NCBI RefSeq assembly: GCF_022846255.1
Contig: NZ_AP025682.1
Source of the DNA: Escherichia coli
Lineage (GTDB): Bacteria; Pseudomonadota; Gammaproteobacteria; Enterobacterales; Enterobacteriaceae
DNA: 64,000 nucleotides
Strand: one strand, 5' to 3'
Shown here: positions 61,467 to 64,000 of the stretch, piece after piece
How positions within the stretch are numbered: the first letter of the stretch is position 1
How the letters are laid out: every line of letters starts with the position of its first letter
Translations under genes and position numbers: made by a program
The notes under the pieces: generated by a model
Database searches by the model: none
Told to the model about the DNA's origin: nothing
Seen by the model: the letters and a program-made list of their open reading frames with translations, nothing else

Positions 61467-61498
61467 AAAAAAGCCGCGTCTCCCGGAGAAGACGCGGC
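61467..61498 (-). terminator. Rho-independent terminator ending the patatin/secreted-protein operon
   Basis: Minus strand gccgcgtcttctccgggagacgcggc hairpin followed by TTTTTT, about 145 bp after the stop of the 61642..62052 gene and just before the DUF932 gene. Confidence 0.75.
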
Positions 61499-61641
61499 CT
61501 GACGGGTGAAATGAATAAGGTTTATTGTCTGAGAGGCCTTTCACTGGCGAGCCACGCATTAAGCGGCTTTCCGGTAACAATGGCTGGGGCTGTATTTACC
61601 TTTGATATTAATAATGTGCAGAGAAACGCATGGTTTACTCC

Positions 61642-62052
61642 TTAGATTTTAAGTTTGTCCTGGGCTACAACGACAGGTTTTCCGGATGTGTCGATGACTC
61701 CTACCGTCGGTACGCCATTTTTGATTTCGAAGAACGGTTTGTTGCTACCTGAGCACAGTTGATTGTCCCCGTATTCAATCATTTGTGCTTTCCCGGTTTT
61801 CAGGTTAACTACCGAGACAGTGTAGTCGTAGCACCAGGCACCACCACGCTCAAGCACGAAAACATAGCTGTTATCTTTATAGTTGAACTGATTCTTTGTC
61901 TGGCAATTCATACCGTCAATTTCGGTACAGGAAAACGCTTCTGTAGTATTAACGTATTTGATGTTATTTGGCAGTTTTACTTGTTTCGCAGTAGCGAAGA
62001 CAGAGAACAGAATAGTTACAGCAACGAGTAAAGTTTTGATAAAAGTTTTCAT
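61642..62052 (-). CDS. Small secreted (periplasmic) protein of unknown function; apparent paralog of the upstream gene
   Basis: 136 aa; Sec signal peptide MKTFIKTLLVAVTILFSVFATA; AAGGAG RBS 7 nt upstream of the ATG; 4 Cys; AT-rich; shares the pattern YVFVLERGGAWCYDYTVSVVNLKTG with the upstream protein's VWFQGDGCKANTCGWDFIVTLYNPKT. Confidence 0.7.
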   Translation of the reverse strand: MKTFIKTLLVAVTILFSVFATAKQVKLPNNIKYVNTTEAFSCTEIDGMNCQTKNQFNYKDNSYVFVLERGGAWCYDYTVSVVNLKTGKAQMIEYGDNQLCSGSNKPFFEIKNGVPTVGVIDTSGKPVVVAQDKLKI

Positions 62053-62067
62053 GATAGACTCCTTAAA

Positions 62068-62556
62068 TTAGTTAACCGCAGCTACGTAGTTTTTCACCAG
62101 ATACGCGAATTCATGCACGCCAATTTCACCGAACCAAACCAGGTAGGCCGGGTCATCTAAACCAAAGTAACGGTAGCCAACAACTTCATGGGTTTTTGGG
62201 TTATAGAGTGTTACGATAAAGTCCCAGCCGCAGGTATTGGCTTTGCAACCGTCGCCCTGGAACCAGACTGTACCGTTAATGTTTACTGGCGTGATACCTC
62301 CACCAGGGCCATCCATATAGCCGCCTTTACCGAACATGCCGCTCAGTCCGACCGGTTTTAATGCTTTGTCGATAGCGGCTTTGTAGGTAGCGTCACCTTC
62401 GTACAACTCGTACGTTGATGGACACGCTCCAGGTTGTTCAGCCCAGGCTTCCGGGTTACAACTAAGAGCTTGTTTTACGGTAGCCGCTTCTGCGTTAAAG
62501 TTAAAGCCCGTGAACAGAACCGCCAGAAATAACATAAGGGTATGTAAACGTTTCAT
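62068..62556 (-). CDS. Secreted (periplasmic) protein with Ivy-like features (C-K-x3-C-G loop)
   Basis: Start placed at the internal ATG that gives the Sec signal MKRLHTLMLFLAVLFTGFNFNAEA; motifs KAAIDKA, KGGY, GCKANTCGWDFIV resemble Ivy KAAFNQM, KGGTY, ACKPHDCGSQRIAV; the same frame stays open upstream to 62859 (track ORF 62068..62859), so the start is uncertain. Confidence 0.6.
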   Translation of the reverse strand: MKRLHTLMLFLAVLFTGFNFNAEAATVKQALSCNPEAWAEQPGACPSTYELYEGDATYKAAIDKALKPVGLSGMFGKGGYMDGPGGGITPVNINGTVWFQGDGCKANTCGWDFIVTLYNPKTHEVVGYRYFGLDDPAYLVWFGEIGVHEFAYLVKNYVAAVN

Positions 62557-62886
62557 TGTAAATATTCTTCCGTTGTAAATGGCGCTGGAAAATTTCTCAT
62601 CAGTGAAACCTTCCGGAAGTTTCCCCCCCTTGTATGATGTATATCGCCAGTATTTTATTTCATCCCGGCTGTAATTTTTATATTCCCCGGCACGTGCAAT
62701 AACGCTGACCAGAGATATAAGGCTCATTAATAACTTTACAGGTAATTTCATAATTAAATTTCCAGTGAGTGAATTGACAGGTGAGGGGTAAAACTTTCTC
62801 TCAGGTAATATATATCTGAAAATATTTTCAATAACACCAGACAGGAAAAACACCACCACAGGCGGTGGCGTTTCTTTGGGGCGTCT

Positions 62887-63957
62887 TTATTTAATCCGGG
62901 CCATCGCGTTTCTCAGTGCCAAATCTGCCTCTTCCGTTATATCCAGGCTTTTCTGCAATACCGCCTCTGACCGGGTCAGTGCCTGACGTGCTGCCAGCGG
63001 TTTCCGGATATGCTCCATCGCCAGCATCGTGTCTTCATAGCCCTGCTGACGCCAGGCGTCGGTATGTGCCGATGTAAAACTGAGCAGACCGCCGCTGTTG
63101 CCACCATCACCTGCATATTTCAGCCTTTTCCGGGGACGGATCTCAAGGATTGTGGTGTCCGGAAAAGCCTGGCGATCCCATAAAGAACCGTCACTCAGAT
63201 GCGTCACAATCACCATATTGCATCCGGCATCGACCAGAGGCGTCACAGGGGTATTTCCCTGCATATTTCGCCATCCTCCCATACCACCATCACCGAACAT
63301 TGTCCCCTGAACCTCACGGGGACGGAACAGCAGGGGCAGCGCGGCTGACGCAAGCAGAGCCTCTTTCTGCTGTCCGCGGGGCAGGCTCTGGATATGCTGA
63401 AAAACGGCGTTTTTCGTGGTTCCGACACCCAGTTCAGCACGAATGCAGTCAATAATATCCTGCATGCCCCCTTCTGTGGGGTACAGCGACACATACAGCG
63501 GTAGCCCGTCTGCCAGAGCATCAGTATCAAGATAATGATCCATCAGCGCTGTCAGGGGCTCATCTGACAACAACGGCTGAGCCATCAGATTGTCAAACCC
63601 GTTGATTGTCGATATATGGCGAAGAAGCGTCGTAAGCAGTGCTCCTGCACGTCCGGGGATCTGGCAGAGGTTCATTGCCTGGAACAATTTTTTCAGCAAT
63701 GAAAAGTAAACCAATCTGTTTACCGACAGCACCTGATTATTCCCCAGATGATCCCAGAGCGCCTCCAGGCGTACGGCAGCTTCTGACAGATCGGTAGAGG
63801 CCGCGATAATGGCACCATTGAATGCGCCAATGCTGGCCCCTGAAACCATGCTGATCTGTGTACCACACTCTGCCAGTGCCTTAACCACTCCCGCCTGATA
63901 AGCGCCCACCGCCCCGCCACCGGACAGCACCAGCCCCGTTTTCATTTCTGTACTCAT
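62887..63957 (-). CDS. Patatin-like phospholipase (cytoplasmic; no signal peptide)
   Basis: 356 aa; oxyanion-hole GGGxxG (LSGGGAVGAYQAG), nucleophile elbow GxSxG (GASIG) and catalytic Asp in FGDGGM; AGGGGG RBS; ATG overlaps the stop of an upstream gene. Confidence 0.85.
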   Translation of the reverse strand: MSTEMKTGLVLSGGGAVGAYQAGVVKALAECGTQISMVSGASIGAFNGAIIAASTDLSEAAVRLEALWDHLGNNQVLSVNRLVYFSLLKKLFQAMNLCQIPGRAGALLTTLLRHISTINGFDNLMAQPLLSDEPLTALMDHYLDTDALADGLPLYVSLYPTEGGMQDIIDCIRAELGVGTTKNAVFQHIQSLPRGQQKEALLASAALPLLFRPREVQGTMFGDGGMGGWRNMQGNTPVTPLVDAGCNMVIVTHLSDGSLWDRQAFPDTTILEIRPRKRLKYAGDGGNSGGLLSFTSAHTDAWRQQGYEDTMLAMEHIRKPLAARQALTRSEAVLQKSLDITEEADLALRNAMARIK

Positions 63958-64000
63958 GCAGCCCCCTTCTGAAATATTTCATCGACCATACTTTCAGAGA
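63955..64000 (-). CDS. 3' end of an unidentified gene translationally coupled to the patatin gene (runs off the window end)
   Basis: Minus-strand frame ...SESMVDEIFQKGAA* ends on a TGA that overlaps the patatin ATG (ATGA junction); only 14 codons visible. Confidence 0.45.

Follow-up and report, generated by a model that had tools for sequence, protein, structure and literature searches.

The last 2.6 kb of the window, by which we mean the whole 64,000-nt stretch of Escherichia coli DNA analysed here (contig NZ_AP025682.1), raise the question of what a cytoplasmic patatin-like phospholipase is doing on a CP4-44-type island and which proteins control it. In this region (61467-64000, all genes on the minus strand) the lipase gene lies between the end of a gene that continues off-window and two small genes for proteins of secreted type. 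The original prediction, made from the sequence of the window alone, saw a lipase effector with a pair of duplicated periplasmic immunity proteins and mentioned an anti-phage effector as a secondary idea. Our analysis shows that the secondary idea is the best fit, as the lipase is the third gene of a dynamin-YjcZ-patatin cassette and the NTPase not visible there is a dynamin-like GTPase encoded off-window together with its YjcZ/RdcB-family partner. With a probability of roughly 55% we take this self-contained mobile cassette to be a GTPase-controlled phospholipase effector system, likely serving in phage defence.

The part of the cassette that lies within the window comprises the following features:

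63954..64000, minus strand: 3' end (last 15 codons and stop) of the RdcB/YjcZ-family gene, the rest of which is off-window
62887..63957, minus strand: patatin-like phospholipase of 356 aa, third gene of the cassette (Pfam Patatin, E 8e-24)
62851..62867, minus strand: terminator-like hairpin, possibly a partial terminator (7 pairs, 5 of them GC, then TTTTT)

The lipase had been described as carrying all three catalytic motifs and no signal peptide, and this description holds. When the lipase is aligned with 12 homologues of 45–64% identity, S12-G-G-G-x-x-G18, G40-A-S42-I-G44 and D223-G-G turn out to be invariant, and across the cassette loci described below GxSxG is kept in 35 of 35 and DGG in 34 of 35 copies. 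Judged by these motifs, S42 is the predicted nucleophile, D223 the predicted catalytic Asp and S12GGGxxG18 the putative oxyanion motif. By inspection the N-terminus has no hydrophobic stretch and the protein no secretion signal or recognisable delivery domain, Pfam finding the patatin domain only. The dN/dS ratio (nonsynonymous to synonymous substitution rates) of the gene is 0.28 within E. coli and 0.08 in comparison with Pectobacterium. A housekeeping patatin of the RssA/YjjU type, which the original prediction had kept in view as an alternative, was considered and rejected, as the NCBIfam model for RssA reaches 32.2 bits against a cut-off of 272 and covers residues 4–55 only. The 4-nt ATGA overlap between the start of the patatin gene and the upstream gene, which had been read as translational coupling, is real; the upstream gene ends in ...SESMVDEIFQKGAA-TGA with its stop at 63954. 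Downstream, the hairpin at 62851..62867 starts 20 nt past the patatin stop, and a search of 56000–64000 against Rfam gave 0 matches.

Many complete E. coli genomes contain the 2.6-kb region at 100% identity, and the off-window genes were taken from the identical locus of E. coli SMS-3-5 (L001, 26.6 kb). There, a hypothetical protein (383 aa) and a YeeP-like GTPase are followed by the dynamin (798 aa, 8749-11145), the RdcB-family protein (301 aa, 11142-12047) to which the lipase gene is coupled, and the patatin (12044-13114), with overlaps of 4 nt both between dynamin and YjcZ and between YjcZ and patatin; after the patatin come two hypothetical proteins, DUF932, an antirestriction protein, YeeS, YeeT, CbeA and CbtA. 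The 301-aa protein matches Pfam YjcZ over residues 26–296 (E 4.7e-70), and the 798-aa protein aligns end to end (residues 1–797) with the NCBIfam model for CrfC/RdcA (NF007368). As its score of 556 bits is far under the equivalog cut-off of 1146, the island dynamin is a paralog of CrfC (YjdA/RdcA) and not the housekeeping protein itself. The cassette pair shows 30–34% identity to core RdcAB-type loci, so that it does not belong to the RdcA/RdcB orthologs either by score or by identity, and the E. coli strains carrying the cassette retain the core rdcAB pair too (30% identity matches). No solved structure matched YjcZ, and the GTPase matched Nostoc BDLP in the P-loop only. Reported 'mutations' in crfC, rssA and yeeP of strain ATCC 25922 (PMC7696260) are probably mapping artefacts between paralogous copies and were not used.

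The cassette is conserved as a unit, with the same gene content, coupled genes and intact catalytic motifs, and it is mobile. One GTDB genome per species was scanned with an alignment of 12 YjcZ sequences as seed; sorted by tblastn, the 79 loci obtained fall into 31 with three and 48 with two genes. The three-gene loci contain dynamin, YjcZ and patatin, the patatin start lying at most about 60 nt after YjcZ, and the two-gene loci, all from Enterobacteriaceae and with a YjcZ of 32–41% identity, are of the core rdcAB type without a patatin. Hosts of the three genes are Escherichia albertii, Pantoea, Erwinia, Budvicia and nine Pseudomonas, and furthermore Macromonas, Thiodictyon, Allochromatium, Aquaspirillum, Comamonadaceae, Paenacidovorax, Marinospirillum, Gallionella, Pontibacterium, Yanghanlia and several metagenome-assembled genomes (MAGs), giving a range of gamma- and betaproteobacteria plus IncF plasmids. 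Separate contig lookups found the order Dynamin_N, YjcZ, patatin again in Pseudomonas fluorescens, Vibrio parahaemolyticus and Pectobacterium versatile, and full-length patatin homologues with 45% identity or more were found in Pectobacterium, Yersinia, Erwinia, Plesiomonas, Providencia, Enterobacter, Budvicia, Vibrio and Pseudomonas. The spacing from dynamin to YjcZ is -4 nt in 25 of 34 loci and that from YjcZ to patatin -4, -8 or -1 nt in 26 of 34. All full-length dynamin copies have intact G1 (GxxxxGKS) and G3 (DxPG) motifs, G1 being GTMKAGKS in all but one locus, and G4 (NK[FIY]D) is intact in all of them except one. At 50% identity the YjcZ family as a whole is small, amounting to 327 clusters in a set of 1.84 billion representative proteins, and no YjcZ homologue was found in 50,697 phage genome records.

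Within E. coli the cassette is carried on CP4-44-type islands, also in pathogenic strains, and of 5426 complete genomes 2498 (46%) have the patatin gene, in up to four copies per genome. A cassette of 62% identity is found on about 25 plasmids of Klebsiella, Enterobacter and E. coli. In the one plasmid copy that was examined, on the IncF conjugative plasmid p1512-dfrA of K. pneumoniae (L095, 6773-10991), the cassette is bracketed by IS1, IS26 and ISCfr4, IS1 has truncated the dynamin gene at its 5' end and the two small genes are absent. An IS21-family element lies inside the dynamin gene of two E. coli islands (L008 and L011, 2132-3933) and splits it. Two MAG contigs labelled Gammaproteobacteria and Syntrophomonadaceae (L027 and L029) have the same cassette with common flanking ORFs (open reading frames), and a 'Synergistaceae' MAG (L048) carries it as well, which points to a binning error or a recent transfer. 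Across the cassette loci no fixed fourth gene was found 3' of the patatin. In four loci from Pseudomonas, Pantoea and Erwinia (L002, 10090-10428; L016, 8034-8498; L025, 7993-8730; L051, 8004-8828) the patatin is followed by a YaaW/MsyB-like ORF (NCBIfam PRK10236, E 1.6e-18), which could be an occasional fourth gene or a mere neighbour.

This distribution bears on the idea of a secreted virulence phospholipase of the ExoU, VipD or PlpD type encoded on a pathogenicity island. The closest solved relatives of the lipase by sequence are indeed PlpD, VipD and ExoU, and the island is also found in pathogenic E. coli, but the structural match covers only the first ~60 residues, which is the region of the catalytic motifs, and no domain or context of an autotransporter or of a type III or type IV secretion system was seen. 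With the cassette being present in environmental Pseudomonas, Gallionella, Allochromatium and Thiodictyon, and the lipase always being coupled to a cytoplasmic GTPase pair, we regard a virulence function as very improbable.

What the GTPase pair might do is best seen from its relatives in E. coli K-12, where RdcA binds to RdcB as well as to the MASE1 domain of DgcE, a diguanylate cyclase whose activation requires GTP hydrolysis (PMC6510439). Both pairs consist of a dynamin-like GTPase of ~790 aa and a YjcZ protein of ~300 aa encoded by overlapping genes, and their G1, G3 and G4 motifs are identical (GTMKAGKS, DTPG, NKFD). In contrast to K-12 rdcAB, which is located at a core flagellar-regulon locus, the cassette is found on islands and plasmids and has a coupled patatin as its third gene. 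As RdcA/RdcB activates DgcE, by analogy the island GTPase pair most likely controls the lipase, which would then presumably be its client in place of DgcE. In such a model the RdcA-like GTPase and its RdcB-like partner would hold or activate the cytoplasmic lipase depending on their nucleotide or assembly state, and a trigger, most plausibly phage infection, would make them release or activate it. The active lipase would then hydrolyse phospholipids of the inner membrane and thereby halt the infected cell (abortive infection). What is shown of this is the genetic architecture; the physical interaction of GTPase and lipase, the trigger, the membrane-lipid substrate and the defence phenotype are inferred. 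In its working the cassette would resemble RdcAB acting on a client and also abortive-infection systems composed of an NTPase and an effector.

The same relationship could also be read in the direction of signalling, with the pair regulating in trans a diguanylate cyclase or some other target in the membrane and the patatin being a co-regulated accessory enzyme, for example in lipid signalling or biofilm formation. The YjcZ match, the full-length CrfC/RdcA match and the activation of DgcE by RdcAB would all agree with this, as would a MAG locus (L036) having GGDEF diguanylate cyclase genes on both sides (1632-2849, plus strand; 8255-9394, minus strand). Such GGDEF neighbours, however, were present in only one of 26 loci examined, the identity to core RdcAB is low, and E. 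coli strains with the cassette keep their own rdcAB pair. Moreover, nearly all cassette loci have a translationally coupled lipase gene, which argues for the lipase being the client, and we therefore consider regulation of a cyclase in trans improbable.

By its proteins the cassette falls into the patatin and YjcZ/RdcA families, and it belongs neither to CBASS (anti-phage systems that signal through cyclic oligonucleotides) nor to Eleos, RssA or Tle/Tli. Like CBASS with its CapV effector, it is a mobile accessory cassette in which a cytoplasmic patatin would probably do the killing, and WYL-type regulators (CapW/BrxR-like) lie near several loci. Unlike CBASS, it has no CD-NTase cyclase in its operon (by annotation and PADLOC), and the control by a cyclic nucleotide would be replaced by control through a GTPase complex. 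The PADLOC model of the CBASS phospholipase effector aligns with residues 9–73 of the lipase only (E 4e-5), and the NCBIfam model for CapV (NF041079) reaches 19.5 bits against a cut-off of 200. With Eleos (LeoA/LeoBC) the cassette shares a dynamin-superfamily GTPase on E. coli islands for which phage defence has been proposed or shown, but Eleos has neither a YjcZ-family protein nor a lipase; LeoBC matches the P-loop of the cassette dynamin only (residues 29–89, 19.8 bits) and LeoA not at all. The original prediction had not recognised the gene combination as a described system, and an RdcA-type GTPase pair with a patatin effector is indeed none, even if the cassette has already been flagged by two recent papers.

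One of these papers presents a computational prediction. DefensePredictor (PMC13092281) lists a 798-aa dynamin homologue from ECOR strains with a mean log-odds of 6.7 and a 794-aa homologue with 7.7 as 'Predicted novel defense gene', and names Eleos LeoBC as their nearest known relative with a similarity value of 0.26–0.29. According to the same source, the ECOR copy of the cassette adjoins the validated DS-38 system. The second paper, a transcriptome study from 2026 (PMC12922286), describes this operon as a 'putative dynamin phage defense system', gives ~30% identity to core RdcAB and states that no literature link between bacterial dynamins and phospholipases was found.

The genomic neighbours point in the same direction. 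Regulators of the WYL class are typical of defence operons (cf. BrxR, CapW), and WYL regulators of the BrxR-like or HTH-WYL-WCX type flank 10 non-Escherichia loci from different genera. The loci in question are L002, L017, L019, L021, L024, L025, L034, L035, L038 and L044. A type I restriction-modification system flanks one of these loci (L035), MADS-like genes flank another cassette locus (L028), and SIR2 plus DUF87 as well as Imm49 flank the Vibrio locus. Taken together, the sampled neighbourhoods give moderate support to a role in defence. Weaker WYL-like matches also precede two-gene loci without a patatin in Cedecea, Buttiauxella and some Enterobacter (L039, L042, L043, L045, L046, L049), and the Cedecea/Buttiauxella-type loci with such a regulator upstream have convergent housekeeping genes downstream.

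Several observations weigh against a defence function. K-12 RdcAB is a regulator of cyclic di-GMP and not a defence system, no PADLOC model (2023) matches the cassette, and in the literature we found no functional study of the cassette, whether on defence, on lipase activity or on an interaction between GTPase and lipase. The supplementary table naming the DS systems (file 2 of PMC13092281) does not contain the word 'dynamin', so that the cassette is missing at least from that file. Most of the 30 large flanking ORFs tested have no PADLOC match either, and some flanks consist of housekeeping genes such as miaA and folC. A signature typical of defence systems, the swapping of effectors, is also missing, as only a patatin or nothing follows YjcZ. 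The induction in lysogens described below comes from one strain, and its authors flag some of the reads as multi-mapping (PMC12922286). Finally, DynA of Bacillus subtilis, as related in PMC12922286, delays lysis without blocking infection and protects by membrane repair and not by killing.

The last point leads to a different function, namely membrane maintenance or repair, in which the dynamin-like GTPase would remodel or seal the damaged inner membrane and the lipase would supply or remove lipids locally. The cell would then gain by withstanding envelope stress, pore formers or lysis by phage, and not by the suicide of infected cells. Membrane remodelling is what dynamins are known for, and the lack of effector swapping as well as some loci among ordinary chromosomal genes would suit such a role. 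On the other hand, the closest characterised relative, RdcA, has been described as a soluble signalling GTPase and not as a membrane-remodelling dynamin (PMC6510439), and a cytoplasmic patatin left free is by its nature a hazard for its own cell. The cassette is also patchy in its occurrence, mobile, plasmid-borne and often located next to WYL regulators and restriction-modification genes, which fits accessory immunity better. We thus judge membrane repair to be a rather unlikely explanation and prefer the GTPase-controlled effector described above.

How do the two small genes fit to such a cassette? In the window they follow the lipase gene as listed here:

62557..62751, minus strand: remnant of the 5' end of X180, 65 codons (BLASTP to the 180-aa ORF of variant islands)
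62068..62556, minus strand: small protein 1, 162 aa, predicted periplasmic protein of a divergent branch of the Ivy superfamily (four invariant Cys, loop C104-K-A-N-T-C109)
61642..62052, minus strand: small protein 2, 136 aa, with a signal-peptide-like N-terminus and predicted to be all-beta (four invariant Cys; only in Escherichia)
61471..61500, minus strand: strong intrinsic terminator at the end of the cluster (13-bp stem, 8 GC pairs, T-run)

RefSeq annotates the first two of these features as one coding sequence of 227 aa (62068..62751), which begins after a gap of 135 nt behind the patatin gene and is separated by 15 nt from the 136-aa ORF. Its first 65 codons show 49% identity over 63 aa (BLASTP, E 7e-15) to the N-terminus of X180, a secreted protein of 180 aa encoded on other E. 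coli islands (L008–L011), and six of ten aligned homologues of small protein 1 (160–161 aa) begin at the Met internal to the 227-aa frame. The 227-aa coding sequence is therefore a chimera generated by an in-frame deletion, and the conserved protein is the 162-aa part, X180 being intact in other island variants. Both small ORFs, as had been predicted, start with a basic segment followed by a hydrophobic one and an A-x-A motif and therefore look like Sec signals by inspection (MKRLHTLMLFLAVLFTGFNFNAEA/A and MKTFIKTLLVAVTILFSVFATA/K), which is consistent with the low pLDDT (AlphaFold2's per-residue confidence) over residues 1–21 and 1–22 of the two proteins. The 227-aa ORF contains two signal-peptide-like segments, one in each of the fused parts.

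The AlphaFold2 model of small protein 1 (pLDDT 75.5) was searched with Foldseek against AFDB50, and outside of the E. coli family many of the matches are annotated as 'C-lysozyme inhibitor' or 'Inhibitor of vertebrate lysozyme' (E 1e-8 to 1e-3). The match between a sequence profile of the family and E. coli Ivy is not significant (E 1.4), yet in this alignment the invariant C104-K105-x-x-x-C109-G110 falls exactly on the CKPHDC-G loop of Ivy. Small protein 1 and Ivy (YkfE) would accordingly have in common a C-K-x-x-x-C loop bounded by a disulfide and, at corresponding positions, a Gly behind it. They differ in that the Ivy loop, CKPHDC, carries the His that is inserted into the active site, whereas the window copy has CKANTC with Asn at this position; in the E. 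coli alleles P0134 and P0136 the loop is CKAHAC and the His is present, so that the specificity of the CKANTC and CKAHAC alleles may differ. Furthermore, the family of small protein 1 is limited to Escherichia islands, unlike Ivy, and Pfam Ivy (PF08816) does not match it even at E≤10. On the basis of the model we assign small protein 1 as a predicted periplasmic protein of the Ivy superfamily, although a divergent one.

The two small proteins had been taken for tandem paralogs because of a common motif, but a relationship between them was not detectable, neither by BLASTP (E 0.31 for the motif) nor by hhalign (probability 0.4%), and their predicted folds differ, being alpha+beta and Ivy-like in small protein 1 and all-beta in small protein 2. 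Profile and structure searches support the lipase as a patatin and small protein 1 as Ivy-like, but not the kinship of the small proteins. Their distribution is also quite different from that of the lipase. Homologues of small proteins 1 and 2 are almost exclusively of Escherichia type (38 clusters for the first and 44 for the second in a set of 5.8 billion proteins, identities going down to ~56–63%), and E. albertii has only a 42-aa remnant of the small-gene region next to its cassette. Of the neighbourhood in the window it is consequently the dynamin-YjcZ-patatin part that is conserved, the small genes being absent from all 30 non-Escherichia cassette loci. The pair has any match in 2375 genomes and a match with at least 80% coverage in 1883, leaving ~490 partial ones. 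A second E. coli island variant encodes the patatin, X180 (180 aa, secreted), a 160-aa homologue of small protein 1 and DUF932, without small protein 2. When the SMS-3-5 locus (L001) is compared with a locus of this kind (L009), near-identity (97.6%) stops ~80 nt past the patatin stop; the synonymous divergence (dS) of the cassette genes is 0.03–0.13 and that of small protein 1 is 0.93 with a dN/dS of 0.20. The latter value indicates a real gene under purifying selection, and the comparison shows that small protein 1 sits in a module with its own evolutionary history and that a mosaic boundary lies directly after the patatin.

These data also decide on the effector-immunity reading of the original prediction, which takes the patatin for a lipase toxin aimed at other bacteria or at the cell itself, with the periplasmic pair as duplicated immunity proteins (Tle/Tli). 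It would agree with a co-regulated cluster in which a lipase gene precedes those of two small secreted proteins. However, the lipase family spans gamma- and betaproteobacteria while the small proteins are confined to Escherichia and are missing from the plasmid copy as well, variant islands have X180 where small protein 2 would be, and in E. coli MZ1211 (L013, 4087-7350) the IS21-family element ISEc12 splits small protein 1 while dynamin, RdcB and patatin beside it are intact. The absence of detectable paralogy and the predicted Ivy fold of small protein 1 also speak against duplicated immunity proteins, and the lipase itself, as described above, has no secretion signal or delivery domain that could be recognised; in the 26.6-kb SMS-3-5 locus no gene for a type VI secretion system, VgrG, Hcp or PAAR is annotated. 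We consider the Tle/Tli explanation hardly credible and conclude that the small genes are a separate Escherichia-specific module and not immunity proteins of the lipase.

The small genes nevertheless seem to be transcribed with the cassette, and the co-regulated cluster on a mobile island that had been proposed does exist. In E. coli MP1 a five-gene cluster is the most strongly induced one in lysogens of Kapi1, a P22-like prophage (PMC12922286). Its genes (L094, 5484-11355; RefSeq) encode a small protein 1 homologue, X180, the patatin and the RdcB-family and dynamin-family proteins, provided that the GenBank locus tags SID94_xxxxx correspond to SID94_RSxxxxx in RefSeq. No sigma-70-like promoter was found on the minus strand in the 135-nt gap after the patatin; the joint induction makes a read-through of the weak hairpin likely, and in the MP1 variant the small genes are probably co-regulated with the cassette in this way. 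The strong terminator postulated at the end of the unit is present, at 61471..61500, but with a second hairpin directly after the patatin the boundaries of the unit are less simple than had been assumed. Co-expression does not turn the small proteins into partners of the lipase.

For the annotation of this locus our analysis has the consequence that the 'hypothetical' 227-aa coding sequence is to be corrected to a chimera with an Ivy-like conserved part and that it would be wrong to take the genes of the small secreted proteins for immunity genes of the lipase. Somewhat more speculatively, and at less than even odds, dynamin-YjcZ-patatin could represent a new class of anti-phage system, in which an RdcA-type switch, possibly sensing the GTP pool or the state of the membrane, licenses a killing phospholipase, and with which Escherichia co-expresses an Ivy-like inhibitor that might act on muramidases of phage or host. 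The main value of the finding lies in the very high prevalence of the cassette in E. coli and in the ease with which it can be tested. If it is a defence system, it would be among the commonest uncharacterised ones in this species, and it would link the signalling by dynamin GTPases of the RdcA/RdcB type with patatin-effector immunity and provide a direct genetic handle on what RdcA-type GTPases sense.

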